NCBI GenBank assembly: GCA_002787535.1
Contig: PCXB01000050.1
Location: forward strand, 8,205-72,204
Length of the DNA stretch: 64,000 nucleotides
DNA from: Deltaproteobacteria bacterium CG11_big_fil_rev_8_21_14_0_20_45_16
GTDB lineage: Bacteria > Bdellovibrionota > UBA2394
Reading direction: 5' to 3'
Shown here piece after piece: positions 25,544 to 32,205 of this stretch. How positions within the stretch are numbered: position 1 is the stretch's first letter; every line of letters begins with the position of its first letter. Below the pieces are notes generated by a model, which did no database searches, was not told where the DNA came from, and worked only from the letters and a program-made list of their open reading frames with translations. Position numbers and translations under genes: made by a program.

Positions 25544-25897
25544 CTATCTATCAATGATGGAGGGGACTTCAAAAAGAAGTTGATTCGGTAGCCCGCTTGA
25601 GCGCGGGGCATTCATTAAAGCTTCCTCATTGCTAAGTATAAGTTTTTCAAAATCCGGGGAACTATCCTTCTCGTTTCGTAAGCTTTCGAGGGGGTCAATT
25701 TTGAACATTTCATAAAAAGCCGTCTGAACATGAAAGGCGCCCATAGTCTTAGCCTCATCGGCACTCATCGGGATCTTTTGTAATTGATCGACGTAATCCA
25801 AGATTTGCGCGAACTGAGCGCTGAAATTCTTTTTCTCTGTATCGTTTAGCTTTAGATAAGCGAGGCTCGCCACTTTATCGACATCAAATTCTGCCAT
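25544..25897 (-). CDS. gatC: Glu-tRNA(Gln) amidotransferase subunit C
   Basis: 117 aa. ...VASLAYLKLNDTEKKNFSAQFAQILDYVDQL... matches GatC. Lies immediately upstream of gatA. Confidence 0.8.
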   Translation of the reverse strand: MAEFDVDKVASLAYLKLNDTEKKNFSAQFAQILDYVDQLQKIPMSADEAKTMGAFHVQTAFYEMFKIDPLESLRNEKDSSPDFEKLILSNEEALMNAPRSSGLPNQLLFEVPSIIDR

Positions 25898-26185
25898 AAG
25901 CGGCTACCTTATAATGTCATATGCGTTTGAATCAAGAAGGCTGGCGATAGAGGGGCAATATATTATGTTAATATGTCTGAGCTTTCTAAGCCCATTAGGA
26001 TCTAGATATCCCTTTGGCTTCAAATTCCAATTTTTGTCGGGCGAGCTGGACCCCTCTGCAGATCTTATAGGGTCGAGGTCCTAAGTGAGGAAAATCAAAG
26101 GTGGTTTTAATAGCATGGCAATTGCAAAACTAAAAATCAGCACTCGTAGTAGTGAATCTGCACACAGGATCCAAGGAGTTACAAG

Positions 26186-26290
26186 ATGCTAAAGCAAATT
26201 TCTTTCAAACATTTAAGCTACCTTATGATATTCGCGGCCTCGGCACTTCTGCCTGGCTGTAAGAACAGGATCCTATCTGGCGATTATTGA
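26186..26290 (+). CDS. Lipoprotein signal-peptide-only ORF (34 aa), probably the 5' part of a frameshifted gene
   Basis: Strong SD (aaggag, 7 nt upstream) followed by ATG. The product MLKQISFKHLSYLMIFAASALLPGCKNRILSGDY has lipobox LLPGC. Its stop overlaps the start of the following ORF, which is in another frame. Confidence 0.4.
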   Translation: MLKQISFKHLSYLMIFAASALLPGCKNRILSGDY

Positions 26291-26673
26291 TTCCGCAGTA
26301 TGCGCGCTTTTGTGATGTCTTTCCTGCAGAGGGTTTAGAATTCAATGATGTTGGTGAAAATTTAAATAACTTAGATTCGCTCAACCCACGTCAGCAAGTC
26401 GAGGTACTTAATCAGCTCCAAGGTGCTTCAGTAGAAGACGCTTGTGGGCAGCTTCACGAATTATTAAATGGCAATAACTGTGTAAGCGTTGAAGACTTAT
26501 GTAATGCAAATCCTGAGGATTGTCAGGATCCAAGTGAGCTTCGAAGAGCCTTAGCGAAATGTGGCGTTGAAGACTGTGCCGATTGTGAAAGTTGCCAATC
26601 TCAAGCTTTAGGAAATGTATCAAGCCTCGAGGCTTGTTCTGCTGGCGAGGCCGAGTTTGAAGGCGATTTTTAA
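26287..26673 (+). CDS. Acidic cysteine-rich protein, likely the mature part of the frameshifted lipoprotein
   Basis: 128 aa with 10 Cys and many Asp/Glu (…EDCADCESCQSQ…). It has a TTG start and no RBS of its own. Its frame is open from 26263, overlapping the upstream signal-peptide ORF. Confidence 0.45.
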   Translation: MIPQYARFCDVFPAEGLEFNDVGENLNNLDSLNPRQQVEVLNQLQGASVEDACGQLHELLNGNNCVSVEDLCNANPEDCQDPSELRRALAKCGVEDCADCESCQSQALGNVSSLEACSAGEAEFEGDF

Positions 26674-27395
26674 TAGTGCCTTTTTGTAAGCTGCAGGAAT
26701 CTAAAACTTAGCGCCGCCGAGGCCGTCAGAAGTCCAATGGCAAGACCAACCCAGATTCCGATGGCTCCGAGGCTTGTGTGAAAGCCAAGATAGTAGCAAA
26801 GAGGTAAGGCCCAGAAGCTATAATTAAATAAGCTAATCAGTGTTGGCATTCGAATATCAGAAATTCCACGCAAGCATCCCAGGCTGATCACTTGAACCCC
26901 ATCAAAAATTTGAAAAATGGCAGCGACGATCATAAAGTCACCAGCAATATTCAGGATTGCTGAGTCATTTGTATAGATGGCGGGGAGGCTTCGATGGCCA
27001 AAGGCAAAAATTATTCCAAATAATCCCATGCTTAAAATTCCAAGTAGGAGAGCACTAAGGCCTTCGCGCCTCGCTTCGCGAATTTGCTTTCGTCCGAAGG
27101 CCATGCCAACAAGGATAGTGGCGGCAAAAGAAATTCCGAGTGCAAACATAAAGGTTGTGGCGGCCATACTCAGAGCAATCTGATGGGCAGCAAGTTCGTT
27201 AACACCAATCCATCCCATCATCACGGCAGCCATAGCAAAAGTGCCTACTTCGAAGAGTCCTTGAAAGCCGCTTGGAAAGCCAATCTTAATCGCGGACTTA
27301 AATAGCCCAGCTTGAAATTTTGCCATCCAAGATTTGGGAAAGAAATCTTTAAAGTAAGGATTTTTGAAAATAAGCCAGGCAAGGCCGACGAACAT
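26670..27395 (-). pseudogene. MATE-family efflux transporter, C-terminal half only (5'-truncated by mobile element insertion)
   Basis: The 241 aa product has six TM helices typical of the second MATE lobe. The reading frame stays open upstream of the Met right into the left inverted repeat (stop inside the repeat at 27411-13), and no N-terminal half exists upstream. Confidence 0.6.
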
Positions 27396-27406
27396 CAGAC
27401 ATAGAT

Positions 27407-28232
27407 GGGGTCAGGGCGGTTAAGTGCCAGGTAATCTTATATATGAGCTTTCCGGAAAGTTGCATAGATTTTCGGTTTATGGATGAAAAAGTGGATCAAC
27501 ATCCTGAATTGCCCGGCATTGGGGTGGGATTGCGAATTGCATTATGTTCTCAGATAATGTCACGAACAAGACGCCTCGAAATGCCTGGCGCCTACTATCA
27601 TATAATGAACCGTGGTCTTGCCAAGCAAACCATTGTTTTTGATCACGCCGATTTCGATTACTTTACTAAGGGCTTGAAGGAGATTTCAGAACTCTACGAC
27701 GTAGAGATTTTTGCCTATTGTTTGATGAGTAACCATTATCATCTGCTGATTAGAACGCGCATACCCAACTTATCACGGGCGATGCGCCACTTTGGTCATA
27801 CTTTTACGCAACGAGTCAATCTACGTGTTAAACGAGACGGCCCACTTTTTCGTGGGCGATTCAAGTCGCTATTGGTTTGTGATGATTCTTATTTGCTTCA
27901 ATTAGTCCGCTATATTCATCGTAATCCCGTGAAGGCCGGAATTGTTGAGAGAGTCCGAGACTATGAATGGTCGAGTGCTTTAGGCTATGAAAGCCCCAGT
28001 TTTCCAGTATGGCTCTCGCGAGATGAAATTCTTAGCAGATTCAATAGTAACAGGAAGTCAGCTTCCAAGGCTTATTGTGAGTTTGTTGAAAACGAGAGCT
28101 CGGGGGAGCTTGAAGCTTTTTATTCACGTCAAAGGCTCGGAGATCGCTTAACGGAAGAACGAATTCTTCGTGCTCATGAAAATGCAATTAAAGAAGGTCG
28201 GAGCTTACCTGGCACTTAACCGCCCTGACCCC
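27407..28232 (+). mobile_element. 826-bp element: RAYT/IS200-like Y1 transposase gene flanked by perfect 27-bp inverted repeats
   Basis: Left repeat GGGGTCAGGGCGGTTAAGTGCCAGGTA (27407-27433) and right repeat TACCTGGCACTTAACCGCCCTGACCCC (28206-28232) are exact reverse complements. No target-site duplication is visible. The element disrupts the MATE gene on one side and supplies the last 14 codons of the hydrolase gene on the other. Confidence 0.75.
27557..28219 (+). CDS. Y1 HUH tyrosine transposase, IS200-like / REP-associated (RAYT-like)
   Basis: YYHIMNRG...CLMSNHYHLLIRT holds the HUH motif HYH. VRYIHRNPVKAGIV matches the YIHxNPVKxG catalytic-Tyr motif of RAYT/IS200-like proteins. The ORF track starts at 27443, but the family-typical start is MSRTRRLEMPGAYYH at 27557 (in frame). 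Confidence 0.7.
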   Translation: MSRTRRLEMPGAYYHIMNRGLAKQTIVFDHADFDYFTKGLKEISELYDVEIFAYCLMSNHYHLLIRTRIPNLSRAMRHFGHTFTQRVNLRVKRDGPLFRGRFKSLLVCDDSYLLQLVRYIHRNPVKAGIVERVRDYEWSSALGYESPSFPVWLSRDEILSRFNSNRKSASKAYCEFVENESSGELEAFYSRQRLGDRLTEERILRAHENAIKEGRSLPGT

Positions 28233-29447
28233 CAAGCTTGGAAAGTCGGTTGAGTAATCGATTTCGTAGAGACTGGAGCCGCATTGATAGCTAATTTTTT
28301 CGCCACGCTCAAAATCATCTTGCTGCACAAGATGATTTTGGCGTCTTTGAGGGTCGGCGAAGTCCAAGATCAATCCTTTGAAGCTCGTCTCATCGTGTTG
28401 ATCTAAACTTTGATACCCGATGGGGAGTCCTACATTGGAAGTTAAATATTCAAGGTCAAAGCCATTTTCTTTCATAAGTCGAACGAAGACCTCTTTTTCA
28501 GATCGTGGATGCATTTCGTCATCGATTTGCTGTGTCATGACGAAATGCGGTCCGGGGCCCCTAGTTTGCGCTTTCCATTGTTGAATTTGATTCGTATCAA
28601 GTTGAGTTCGAATCATCGCTCTATCGGGAGAAAAATAATTTTGGCTGTTTGGATCTCGTGACCAATAGTTTTCCATGATGAGATGCATTTTGATACTTTC
28701 GTTTTGTACGGTAGCCGCCCAATCACCTTTATGAATCCATTTGAGATAGGGCTTAACCCAACCATAAGAATTAATAATCAGTGAGAATGTATTAGGAGCA
28801 AAGCGAGCACATTGAGTGCTCAAATAGCCCCCATGGCTAATGCCGGCAGCTGTTAACTGGTTCCAATTTGCTTTCGGAAACTTCTCTTTGGCGAGGCGAA
28901 TGGCCCATAGGCAATCTATTGTTTGCATCAGGCCAAAATCATAGTGATCATCAGGAAACCGTTTGCCAATGACGCCCATATATTCTCCGGCTTCCAGATG
29001 ATATTGCTCTCGCAACTTTTTAAGATAATTAACAGTCAAATGAGCTGCCTTTGGACTTTGGAGGACGTCCGCGGGTATGAGAGGTAGACCTAATTCAACC
29101 AATCTTTCATTGGTCATTTTTAGGCAGACTTCGTCAAAAAAGGGAATGCCGTTCAAGTCTCGAAGAATCTTTGTGCCCAGGTAATCCAAGGTGATGACAA
29201 GGGCATTGCATTTGGTGCGAATACTCTCATGAAAAGATTTAAGGTAATCGGAATCCCCGAGTCGCCCAAAACCATGAAGCGCTAGAAGTGGAAAGGTCTC
29301 CGAATTGACGCCATCCGGAGGTTCTGAAATCCATACGGGAAGCTGTTGCCGCTCAACGACTGCAAGCTCGGGCGGTTGTGGAGGGGCGAGCAAGAAGCTA
29401 TGTCGCCCATTGCTAACTTCCTTGTGTTCGATGATTGGGTTCGCCAC
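28188..29447 (-). CDS. Putative alpha/beta-hydrolase (esterase/lipase-like); 3' end now supplied by the mobile element
   Basis: 419 aa with a GISHG nucleophile-elbow (GxSxG) and an LALHGFG oxyanion-like region. The last 14 codons (GVRAVKCQVSSDLL) are encoded by the right inverted repeat of the element, so the native 3' end has been replaced. Confidence 0.5.
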   Translation of the reverse strand: MANPIIEHKEVSNGRHSFLLAPPQPPELAVVERQQLPVWISEPPDGVNSETFPLLALHGFGRLGDSDYLKSFHESIRTKCNALVITLDYLGTKILRDLNGIPFFDEVCLKMTNERLVELGLPLIPADVLQSPKAAHLTVNYLKKLREQYHLEAGEYMGVIGKRFPDDHYDFGLMQTIDCLWAIRLAKEKFPKANWNQLTAAGISHGGYLSTQCARFAPNTFSLIINSYGWVKPYLKWIHKGDWAATVQNESIKMHLIMENYWSRDPNSQNYFSPDRAMIRTQLDTNQIQQWKAQTRGPGPHFVMTQQIDDEMHPRSEKEVFVRLMKENGFDLEYLTSNVGLPIGYQSLDQHDETSFKGLILDFADPQRRQNHLVQQDDFERGEKISYQCGSSLYEIDYSTDFPSLGVRAVKCQVSSDLL

Positions 29448-29558: not shown

Positions 29559-30797
29559 ATGGGGTTTTTCAGGGCTAAAATAGGCATAGGGCTTGCAAAT
29601 TTTAGAATCGTGATTCGTAGGCTTTCTTCTATCCTTCTGAGTTTAGTTTTAAGTACGTCCGTTTTGGCGCAAACGGAAGACGATAAAAAGTTTGTAATGA
29701 TTCTTAGTGGTCAGGATGAGTCGGCGCCGATTAAGACGCCGAATGTTTGGTCAAAGGCTCTCAGCGAAATTTTATTACATTATGATTTAACTAGAGCTTC
29801 AAAGATTGAAGCTCTTCCCGATCTCCGTGTGCCGGACGGATTGAGTGAAACGAGTCAAAAAAAATTAGAGTACCTTTATAGTGTTTATTTAAAATTTAGG
29901 ACTGAATCGCCAAAATCAAGATGGTTTCTTGAGACAAGACTGCCGGAGCTTATTGGCGATCTTTCAAAGTCTTTTGAGGCCGAGAGAGATTTGAGGCCGG
30001 CCGATGGCTCTCCAGTTCAAGCTTGCCCGCCGGACGCTGGAGGCGTCGAAGATTTTGTGAACGAGGCAACAAGGACCGGCGAAGCCCGTGTTGAAGCAAT
30101 CGATATCGCCGCTTGGAAAAATAACTGGAGCCCGCGAGTTGCTGCCGCGTTTATTCGTCAGAAAATTAAAGATTATTCCTTTGCTTTAAATGCCCCTATT
30201 GTTTCGCGGGAGAGTTCGGGAATGAAGCCCCCTAAAAGTGATATCAATCAATGGGCTCCTAACGCGGCTATACGAAGAATTATCGTTCATCATACGGTTA
30301 CCTCGAATAAACTTACGGCGACTGATATTCAGCAAATGCATTTTGATAACCCGACAGAAAAATACTCCGATGTCGCCTACCACTTTCTGATTGGGGATGA
30401 TGGAAAAATTTATGAAGGTCGAGAACTAAAATATAAGGGGGGTCATTCTGAAAACAATAATGATGACTCTATCGGCATCACCTTTATTCGAAATAGCCAG
30501 TCCTTTGATGCCATCAATAATCCATCGGGTTGGACCGATCCCAAAGACGCGCCCCCTTCCCCTGAAGCCCTTTTGGCCTTTGCGCAGCTTGTTCACTCTT
30601 TAGAAACACCAGGAGCCAAGCTTCATGATCAGCTTGTGAATCAAAATCTTAGAGTCGAATTTCGGCATATCATCGGGCATACTCATACGAAAGCTACGGA
30701 TTGTCCTGGGGATGGATGCTTAGAGGCGGTCAAAGCTTTTGATGATGTTATGATGGTCGAGCCAAAGGCAGCGGCTAAGGAGAAGAAGAAAAAATGA
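29559..30797 (+). CDS. Secreted N-acetylmuramoyl-L-alanine amidase (Amidase_2/PGRP domain) with N-terminal unknown domain
   Basis: The C-terminal domain has ...IIVHHTVTS...DVAYHFLIGDDGKIYEGR...IGHTHTKATDCPG, the zinc-ligand pattern of amidase_2/PGRP. A signal-peptide-like N-terminus is present. Confidence 0.7.
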   Translation: MGFFRAKIGIGLANFRIVIRRLSSILLSLVLSTSVLAQTEDDKKFVMILSGQDESAPIKTPNVWSKALSEILLHYDLTRASKIEALPDLRVPDGLSETSQKKLEYLYSVYLKFRTESPKSRWFLETRLPELIGDLSKSFEAERDLRPADGSPVQACPPDAGGVEDFVNEATRTGEARVEAIDIAAWKNNWSPRVAAAFIRQKIKDYSFALNAPIVSRESSGMKPPKSDINQWAPNAAIRRIIVHHTVTSNKLTATDIQQMHFDNPTEKYSDVAYHFLIGDDGKIYEGRELKYKGGHSENNNDDSIGITFIRNSQSFDAINNPSGWTDPKDAPPSPEALLAFAQLVHSLETPGAKLHDQLVNQNLRVEFRHIIGHTHTKATDCPGDGCLEAVKAFDDVMMVEPKAAAKEKKKK

Positions 30798-31210
30798 AAG
30801 CTTTTGTTGAAAAATTGAGTTTATGTTTTCTCTTGGCGGCGAGTTTTTCTTTGCATGCAAGTGCCTCGAAACCTAAGGAAGAAAAAGAAAGCTTGCAGAA
30901 AACAAAAGTAAAAGTATTTCTAGAGGATTATGCCTCAAAGATCGGCACAGCTTCCAAGGCAGAGATCGCTGTCTATTATACGGAACGTTTGAAAAATATT
31001 TTAGGCCCCAAGCTTTTGGAGAATCTATCTTCCACTAAGGCCTTTGATTCTAAAGAAGTCGAAATTTTGGATTTCAAGGAGAAGGGCGATAGGGTTTTTG
31101 TAAAATGGAATATTAAAGGTCGGGATACTAAGCTTTCAAAATGGTATGTTTTGATTCCGTCTAAGGAAAAGACGCCTTATCAGATCTTCGATATCACCGA
31201 AGATCTCTAA
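30794..31210 (+). CDS. Hypothetical secreted protein
   Basis: 138 aa with signal peptide MKAFVEKLSLCFLLAASFSLHASA. Shares a 4-nt ATGA overlap with the upstream gene. Confidence 0.5.
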   Translation: MKAFVEKLSLCFLLAASFSLHASASKPKEEKESLQKTKVKVFLEDYASKIGTASKAEIAVYYTERLKNILGPKLLENLSSTKAFDSKEVEILDFKEKGDRVFVKWNIKGRDTKLSKWYVLIPSKEKTPYQIFDITEDL

Positions 31211-31230
31211 ATCGCGGAGAAATGAGCCTA

Positions 31231-31259
31231 TTGACGCCATATGTGACGTCAGTTATGCT
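31231..31259 (+). promoter_or_regulatory. Near-consensus sigma70-type promoter (TTGACG-17 nt-TATGCT) with internal TGACGTCA palindrome; would give a leaderless transcript for the NTase gene
   Basis: -35 at 31231-36 and -10 at 31254-59 with 17 nt spacing. The GTG start of the downstream CDS lies 6 nt after the -10. The palindrome TGACGTCA at 31243-50 sits in the spacer. Confidence 0.4.
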
Positions 31260-31264
31260 AAATT

Positions 31265-31672
31265 GTGAATCGGATCGTCATCAAAGAGCTAGTGGATGAA
31301 TTGGTAGATAAACTGCCTGGCGATTGGGTGTTACTAGGAGGCTCGTTGCTATCCTACTTAAATATTTCAGATCGGCAAACTTATGATATCGATCTTGCCC
31401 CCAAGGGAAAAATTTCAAACGATATAACTTTGGCGGCCATGGAGATTGCCTCAAAAAAGGGGATGCCTCCAGAGGCGATCAATTTTTCTGTAGCATACTT
31501 TCTTAAAAAGCAGAGGTCTTGGGAGTCGGAATTGATTTTGATTCGGAAAACCAAATCATCTCGGCTGTTTCGTCCTACAAAGAAACTTTTTCGAAAATTA
31601 AAGGAAGCTAGAGGGACAGAGACAGATATTAGAGACATAGAATTGTACGAATCTGGAGTAGAAGATCGGTGA
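31265..31672 (+). CDS. Minimal AbiEii-like nucleotidyltransferase
   Basis: 135 aa. VLLGGSLLSYLNISDRQTYDIDLAPK carries the same GG...Y...R-x-T-x-DIDL core as the 215-aa NTase at 12077-12724. GTG start. Confidence 0.55.
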   Translation: MNRIVIKELVDELVDKLPGDWVLLGGSLLSYLNISDRQTYDIDLAPKGKISNDITLAAMEIASKKGMPPEAINFSVAYFLKKQRSWESELILIRKTKSSRLFRPTKKLFRKLKEARGTETDIRDIELYESGVEDR

Positions 31673-32205
31673 GGGAGTTTGGCCAATTTTTGAAGGTCTT
31701 GCGAGTTGAAACTGGGCTTTCCCAAAGGGAGCTCGCTAAGTTATCGAAGGTAAGTTTCCGTCAGATTCAGCGGATCGAAAAAGGCCAATGTGACCCAAGT
31801 CTCGGGCTCGCTGACTTGCTTTTCAAACAGTTTCGCGTTGAGCTGAAGCCTCTATATGAAGAGCCAGATTGGGGATTCCTGTCCAGTATCGGGTGGCCAA
31901 TGATTGATTCATATCAGCAGAAGGAAAGGGCTAAGAGAGTGAGCTGGACGAGGGTATCCGGCGAAATAATCTATGCAGCTAAATATATTTTAAGAAATCG
32001 AAATGAATTTTCTGACGACCGTCATTTTGATGCCATGAAAGCCTTATTATTTGCCTTGAAAACGCACTATCCAACGAAGTTCCGAGAACTCGAAGCGATT
32101 CTGGGTCCTAAATTTCTCAAACCCTATGAGCTGGCGGAAATCCGGGGAAGAGATATTAAGCTCCGTAATATTTCATTGGGACGGCTATATAAATACCTTT
32201 CGTAA
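31669..32205 (+). CDS. XRE-family HTH protein with C-terminal domain of unknown function (putative partner of the NTase)
   Basis: 178 aa. The N-terminal LRVETGLSQRELAKLSKVSFRQIQRIEKG is a Cro/C1-type HTH. The GTG start overlaps the NTase stop by 4 nt. Confidence 0.55.
   Translation: MREFGQFLKVLRVETGLSQRELAKLSKVSFRQIQRIEKGQCDPSLGLADLLFKQFRVELKPLYEEPDWGFLSSIGWPMIDSYQQKERAKRVSWTRVSGEIIYAAKYILRNRNEFSDDRHFDAMKALLFALKTHYPTKFRELEAILGPKFLKPYELAEIRGRDIKLRNISLGRLYKYLS

Follow-up and report, generated by a model that had tools for sequence, protein, structure and literature searches.

Positions 26186-26673 of the window, the whole stretch of 64,000 nt analysed in this study, raise the question of why a lipoprotein signal peptide stops a few codons after its lipobox while an acidic, Cys-rich polypeptide continues in another reading frame. 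The original prediction read this as a single lipoprotein gene split by a frameshift and gave three options for the split: a sequencing error, a pseudogene, or programmed -1 recoding. In our view, the locus is most probably a recently inactivated frameshift pseudogene and not a case of programmed recoding. The Shine-Dalgarno (SD) sequence and the ATG that were first described are present, and the positions first assigned to the stop of the upstream ORF (26288-90) and the start of the open downstream frame (26263) hold. The features of the split gene are as follows:

26173..26178, + strand, SD sequence AAGGAG, 7 nt 5' of the ATG at 26186, read from the sequence
26186..26260, + strand, frame A, predicted lipoprotein signal peptide MLKQISFKHLSYLMIFAASALLPGC, up to the codon of the lipidated Cys at 26258-60, from homology to the N-terminus of P0003
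26261..26290, + strand, frame A, tail KNRILSGDY and TGA (26288-90), a probable out-of-frame read-through made by the frameshift
26263..26286, + strand, interval of the frameshift, net -1 nt, from spacing and codon comparison with the orthologue
26263..26673, + strand, frame B, predicted mature part of the lipoprotein, acidic, 10 Cys, 136 codons and TAA, from HMMER, tblastn and codon usage

The upstream piece, ORF-A (26186-26290, + strand), has 34 codons, encodes MLKQISFKHLSYLMIFAASALLPGC followed by KNRILSGDY and stops at the TGA. Its n-region is positive (Lys at residues 3 and 8), as in substrates of signal peptidase II, and the h-region, residues 9-24, consists of 16 residues without D, E, R or K, followed by the Cys. 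The strict lipobox pattern is [LVI][ASTVI][GAS]C, with the Cys at +1. The lipobox L-L-P-G-C of the window fails the strict and PROSITE-type core patterns by its Pro at -2, and L-P-G-C is accepted by the broader G+LPPv2 pattern. The three relatives described below, whose signal peptides end in …FLLVSC (P0003) and …SLSGC (P0004 and P0006), all pass the strict pattern (LVSC and LSGC). ORF-A appears to encode a good signal peptide, as had been predicted, but its lipobox falls short of the textbook form that had been claimed for it. Promoters and terminators were also sought in 25800-27500, and near the gene no score exceeded the shuffle expectation.

The downstream piece lies in frame B, the -1 frame relative to ORF-A (offset +2). 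This frame is closed by a TAA at 26260-62, is open from 26263 and ends with the TAA at 26671-73. The sole possible start codon in it is the TTG at 26287, which has no SD. Public gene callers start a 128-aa ORF at this TTG (ORF-B), which contains 10 Cys, 25 Asp+Glu and only 5 Lys+Arg, with a pI of 4.05. The public record for it is PIR22730.1, assigned to a 'Deltaproteobacteria bacterium' MAG and labelled a hypothetical protein of 128 aa; JGI metagenomes contain it as well. Coding character was measured with log-odds scores of codon usage, for which the long ORFs of the window served as the training set. The score of frame B was 0.17 bits/codon, and none of the remaining five frames of this stretch exceeded 0.04. 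The real genes of the window scored 0.26 ± 0.07 bits/codon (5th percentile 0.155), and its off-frames scored -0.04 ± 0.09 (95th percentile 0.09). Since the score of frame B is above the 95th percentile of the off-frames and inside the range of the real genes, frame B resembles real coding sequence.

An exhaustive HMMER search of 1.84 billion representatives gave two relatives, P0003 (172 aa, E 5.7e-15) and P0004 (138 aa, E 4.8e-4). P0006 (145 aa) was the one addition from a profile search. P0005 (HMMER E 6.4e-4), a repetitive acidic protein of 295 aa, was not counted as a relative. All three relatives (3/3) are encoded by one contiguous ORF each, with a lipobox signal followed by an acidic, Cys-rich part; this in-frame state rests on three sequences, with P0003 as the one close orthologue (n = 1). 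The original prediction had proposed to ask of orthologues whether they have a single ORF, and this is how each of them is built. It had also named the arrangement that would speak against a split gene, a Cys-rich protein that has its own start and signal peptide, preceded by an independent gene for a short lipopeptide, and this was found in no orthologue.

P0003 comes from a sister genome in the same groundwater samples (e.g., JGI Ga0210019_1007374 and ENA ERZ27293412 k141_772232). Its locus (L010/L011) has the order aminotransferase-gatB-gatA-gatC on one strand, followed by the P0003 gene and a convergent MatE gene; the window has the same order. The two genes lie between gatC and MatE in equal orientation and encode homologous signal peptides. 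Judging by this gene order, P0003 is the positional orthologue of the window gene. Further searches gave little. A word-indexed protein search with the fused in-frame construct and P0003 as queries returned only the queries themselves, the Cys-rich protein had no match in the genome contigs, and the family profile matched only the sister contig among the metagenome contigs. When GatA was searched against the genome contigs, the nearest species representative was 66% identical and carried efp, not an orthologue, upstream of its gatC, so synteny yields no more orthologues. A search of the literature on the source MAGs turned up no item relevant to this gene.

The alignment with P0003 runs through both pieces. 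The N-terminus of P0003 is MSSQKILFKRLGYLSFFVASFLLVSC-VSILDPFLRALIPEYARIC…, and its continuation (…DPIWRLLIPQYARFC…) matches frame B. Its first 26 residues (MSSQKILFKRLGYLSFFVASFLLVSC) gave a Smith-Waterman score of 56 against ORF-A, compared with 17.9 ± 3.8 for shuffled sequences, and none of 5000 shuffles scored as high. The SD of the window gene has its equivalent in a GGAGGAG of the orthologue, at a similar spacing to the start. On the other side of the junction, HMMER aligned frame B with P0003 over query residues 3-114, beginning six codons upstream of the TTG, and tblastn of frame B against the syntenic gene gave 41.7% identity. The repaired window protein matched P0003 in a single BLASTP alignment (residues 3-139, E 7e-31, 42% identity) that passes through the junction. 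The two proteins have the motifs LIPxYARxC and NNCVxxExxCxxxPExC...CGVxDCAxCxxC in common, 9-10 of the 10 Cys of ORF-B are shared, with 9 matched to a Cys of P0003 in the BLASTP alignment, and P0003 is likewise acidic (pI 4.35). The differences are that the orthologue is an uninterrupted ORF, that its lipobox is LVSC instead of LPGC, that its MatE neighbour is of full length, and that the two proteins are only about 41-42% identical, whereas the flanking proteins of the two genomes are 83-94% identical. Single-ORF relatives, synteny and the alignment across the junction all agree with the earlier reading of one lipoprotein gene split by a frameshift.

The same comparison bears on the possibility that the locus holds two cistrons. 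According to this explanation, a tiny lipopeptide is made from ORF-A, and a cytoplasmic, Cys-rich acidic protein is started at TTG 26287 by termination-reinitiation at TTGA. The stop/start overlap could in principle permit such reinitiation, frame B is open and coding-like, and public callers do annotate the 128-aa ORF from the TTG. However, this TTG lacks an SD and aligns with an internal Leu codon of P0003, and the HMMER match begins upstream of it. The TGA that ends ORF-A is an out-of-frame reading of TTGATTCC, which is in-frame Leu-Ile-Pro in the orthologue. Because the TGA and the TTG are both read from the conserved TTGATT, the TTGA overlap is only a by-product, with no role as a coupling device. 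In all relatives the domain is exported as a predicted lipoprotein, a domain with 10 Cys would be unlikely to fold alike in the reducing cytoplasm, and the two-gene arrangement occurs in none of the relatives. We consider two cistrons improbable; the lipopeptide that they would require would be a signal peptide with a mature part of 10 residues (the lipidated Cys, then KNRILSGDY). The earlier description of frame B as an acidic, 10-Cys, -1 frame with a TTG that has no ribosome-binding site was right, but the TTG does not hold as a dedicated start.

The frame break is a real mutation. Nine contigs carry the locus (from four JGI samples, three ENA assemblies and two SRA runs assembled by Logan), and the junction stretch of 115 nt at 26186-26300 is exact in 9/9. 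Because these independently assembled contigs share an identical junction, we read the break as a mutation and not as an assembly error. The option of a sequencing or assembly artefact, with an intact gene in the true genome, draws on the fact that every dataset is a short-read metagenome assembly from one site and that some of these assemblies may draw on shared read sets. Against this, the nine contigs were made by different assemblers and are identical over about 700-890 compared nt except for one mismatch in total, away from the junction. In 26250-26295 no base occurs more than twice in a row, and the junction is thus not a typical error site; it is not of low complexity either. The fused in-frame construct of 163 aa was searched against 5.8 billion proteins, and an intact allele was not found in any protein collection searched. 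An artefact is very unlikely, and a true genome with an intact gene is hardly to be expected.

Programmed recoding was the second option for the split. The programmed -1 ribosomal frameshift genes include dnaX and the transposase genes of the IS3 family, and the locus resembles them in that its overlapping frames are in a -1 relation. Unlike them, the locus lacks a slippery heptamer, a downstream hairpin or pseudoknot, a stimulatory internal SD and any conservation of the shift in relatives. No heptamer of the form X XXY YYZ was present in 26240-26290, the RNA fold of 26240-26400 was no better than that of shuffles (z = 0.21), and no Rfam element matched. No frame break was found in the relatives P0003, P0004 and P0006. 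Programmed recoding is unsupported because the heptamer, the homopolymer, the stimulatory structure and the conserved shift are all missing, and this option of the original prediction was set aside. There is also a looser version, in which ribosomes still make some full-length lipoprotein, by a non-canonical -1 frameshift or by a short hop. A possible hop would carry peptidyl-tRNA-Ile from ATC 26270-72 to ATC 26275-77, a shift of +5 that is equivalent to -1. The -1 relation of the frames, the intact frame B with every Cys kept, and the pair of ATC codons 5 nt apart at the junction are in its favour. It meets the same lack of a heptamer, a homopolymer, a stimulatory structure and an Rfam element, nothing is conserved, since P0003 and the two distant relatives all read in frame, and the hop would omit the Leu-Asp that is present in every intact relative. 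We regard it as very improbable.

The site of the mutation can be narrowed by comparison with the orthologue. From the Cys codon to the conserved TTGATTCC (Leu-Ile-Pro) there are 37 nt in the window and 41 nt in the orthologue, a difference of one codon and one base. In frame A, the GATCCT at 26269-74 gives Ile-Leu (ATC CTA), and in frame B it gives Asp-Pro (GAT CCT). At this place the orthologue encodes Ile-Leu-Asp-Pro (ATC CTT GAC CCG), an imperfect repeat with a period of 7 nt (GATCCTt/GACCCGt), and Leu-Asp is kept in 3/3 intact relatives. The most economical model would be a 7-nt deletion between GATCCTnGATCCT direct repeats, which would explain both matches; a deletion of 1 nt is the alternative. 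The short segments that flank the junction are singly not significant (p = 0.05 and 0.11), and therefore the event is placed only within 26263-26286, with GATCCT at 26269-74 most plausibly the deletion site. Separately, the 9-mer ACAGGATCC occurs twice, 100 nt apart, at 26164-26172 (just before the SD) and at 26264-26272 (at the frameshift site). By a rough estimate made without a tool, such a duplication is at about chance level for a region of this size.

With a sequencing error and programmed recoding set aside, a genuine inactivating frameshift remains of the three options. We propose that 26186-26673 was one gene for a precursor of about 163 aa, a small, acidic, Cys-rich lipoprotein. It would have been broken by a small deletion (net -1 nt) a few codons past the lipobox Cys. 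Translation from the SD and ATG would now yield the signal peptide and nine out-of-frame residues before the TGA at 26288. The Cys-rich mature domain would be stranded in the -1 frame, with neither a signal peptide nor a proper start, and the gene has presumably lost its function. Classical frameshift pseudogenes, which are met in bacterial genomes with ongoing gene decay, are similar in several respects: two ORFs in different frames align to a single-ORF orthologue, only the upstream piece has an SD and a proper start, and the gene next to them has been truncated near a mobile element. The difference is that the downstream frame of the window shows no further decay, which points to a very young or a constrained frame.

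The age of the frameshift was considered with a simulation of neutral decay. This replaced dN/dS on frame B because the synonymous sites are saturated between the genomes (pS 0.55-0.87). Frame B is still open over 136 codons and retains 10/10 Cys. Under neutrality, the probability of an open frame with all Cys was 0.12 at 0.05 substitutions/site and 0.016 at 0.1, and once about 0.07 substitutions per site were exceeded, it was below 0.05. This leaves either a very recent frameshift or a frame B still under selection, and the latter is not predicted by a pure pseudogene. If the frame drifted neutrally, the frameshift is at most about 0.07 substitutions/site old. The window differs from the sister genome by a dS of about 1-3, and a young frameshift would fall roughly within the last tenth of the separate history of the lineage. 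Selection on frame B would mean that the gene is alive: the preserved -1 frame, with its 10 Cys and no stops, would be used through motif-less recoding at GATCCTATC or as a cytoplasmic protein started at TTGA. We think this unlikely; were it so, the gene would belong to a very rapidly diversifying, Cys-scaffolded family of orphan lipoproteins. On the preferred reading of a pseudogene, the frameshift is probably recent, and most of the protein divergence then accrued while the gene was functional.

The value of this result lies foremost in annotation, and the ORF of PIR22730.1 is more aptly annotated as the 3' portion of a lipoprotein gene with a frameshift. In this uncultured groundwater bacterium it is most probably an ordinary frameshift-inactivated gene, from a lipoprotein family that is small and uncharacterised, and the locus opens no long-standing question. 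Minor biological interest lies in the fact that the family is very small, has a six-Cys core and evolves fast.

The original prediction saw no obvious known family for the Cys-rich protein, and the searches bear this out. Pfam and NCBIfam gave no hit above the cutoff for the window ORF, P0003 or P0004, and a profile search of the PDB sequences gave a best E-value of 0.6. The family comprises four sequence clusters, including that of the window gene, in a search space of 5.8 billion proteins, and is unannotated. All members are acidic (pI 4.0-4.4). Six Cys are invariant in 4/4 members (C45, C103, C110, C117, C132 and C138 in the numbering of P0003), and the conserved core is NCVxxxxxCxxxPxxC…GxxDC…C. 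The six invariant Cys are consistent with three conserved disulfides, and the intact protein would be a disulfide-bonded lipoprotein of the periplasm or the surface. The family may also bind metal. AlphaFold2, run on P0003 with the 4-sequence alignment, gave a mostly helical but unreliable model with a mean pLDDT of 50.9. Two distant members (L016 1071-2905; L018 4938-6838) adjoin a convergent gene for a DCC1-like thiol-disulfide oxidoreductase and a divergent DUF6268 gene. The DCC1-like neighbour may hint at disulfide chemistry, which is suggestive only.

The dN of the window gene (26263-26673 against L010 7355-7789) was 0.62, compared with 0.04-0.12 for nine flanking genes. This indicates that the non-synonymous evolution of the lipoprotein gene was about 5-15 times faster than that of its housekeeping neighbours. 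Fast non-synonymous evolution is typical of exposed envelope proteins. The locus is a hyper-divergent lipoprotein gene, with saturated synonymous sites, inside an otherwise conserved syntenic block (flanks 83-94% identical).

Two further features lie downstream of the lipoprotein gene:

26670..27395, - strand, 5'-truncated MatE efflux gene, with one Pfam MatE domain only
27407..28232, + strand, REP-associated tyrosine transposase gene (27443-28219) in 31-nt inverted repeats, from Pfam Y1_Tnp and NCBIfam NF047646

The truncated MatE gene keeps the equivalent of residues 192-436 of the 436-aa protein of the sister genome. By tblastn and blastn, its homology to the sister locus ends at 27398-27404, and the N-terminal half is absent from the whole window. 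An in-frame, conserved Met in the truncated gene gives rise to a spurious ORF of 241 aa. The transposase scored 82.1 bits against NF047646 (cutoff 80), and its inverted repeats at 27407-27437 and 28202-28232 match at 30/31 positions (96.8%). It abuts the MatE breakpoint, and the window has only this one copy of it. The sister locus has neither the transposase nor the adjacent DUF2920 gene (window 28188-29447). The loss of the lipoprotein gene, the truncated MatE and the inserted transposase together show local gene decay in this lineage.

Decay was also seen on the other side. The sister genome lacks the three ORFs that precede TerC at 30794-32205 of the window. An Amidase_2 gene of 412 aa is intact in the window (29559-30797) and is present only as fragments in the sister genome (L011 5479-5895); these encode 57 aa and 80 aa and show 49% identity over residues 106-293. 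Judged from these gene contents, the decay between the window and the sister genome is reciprocal.
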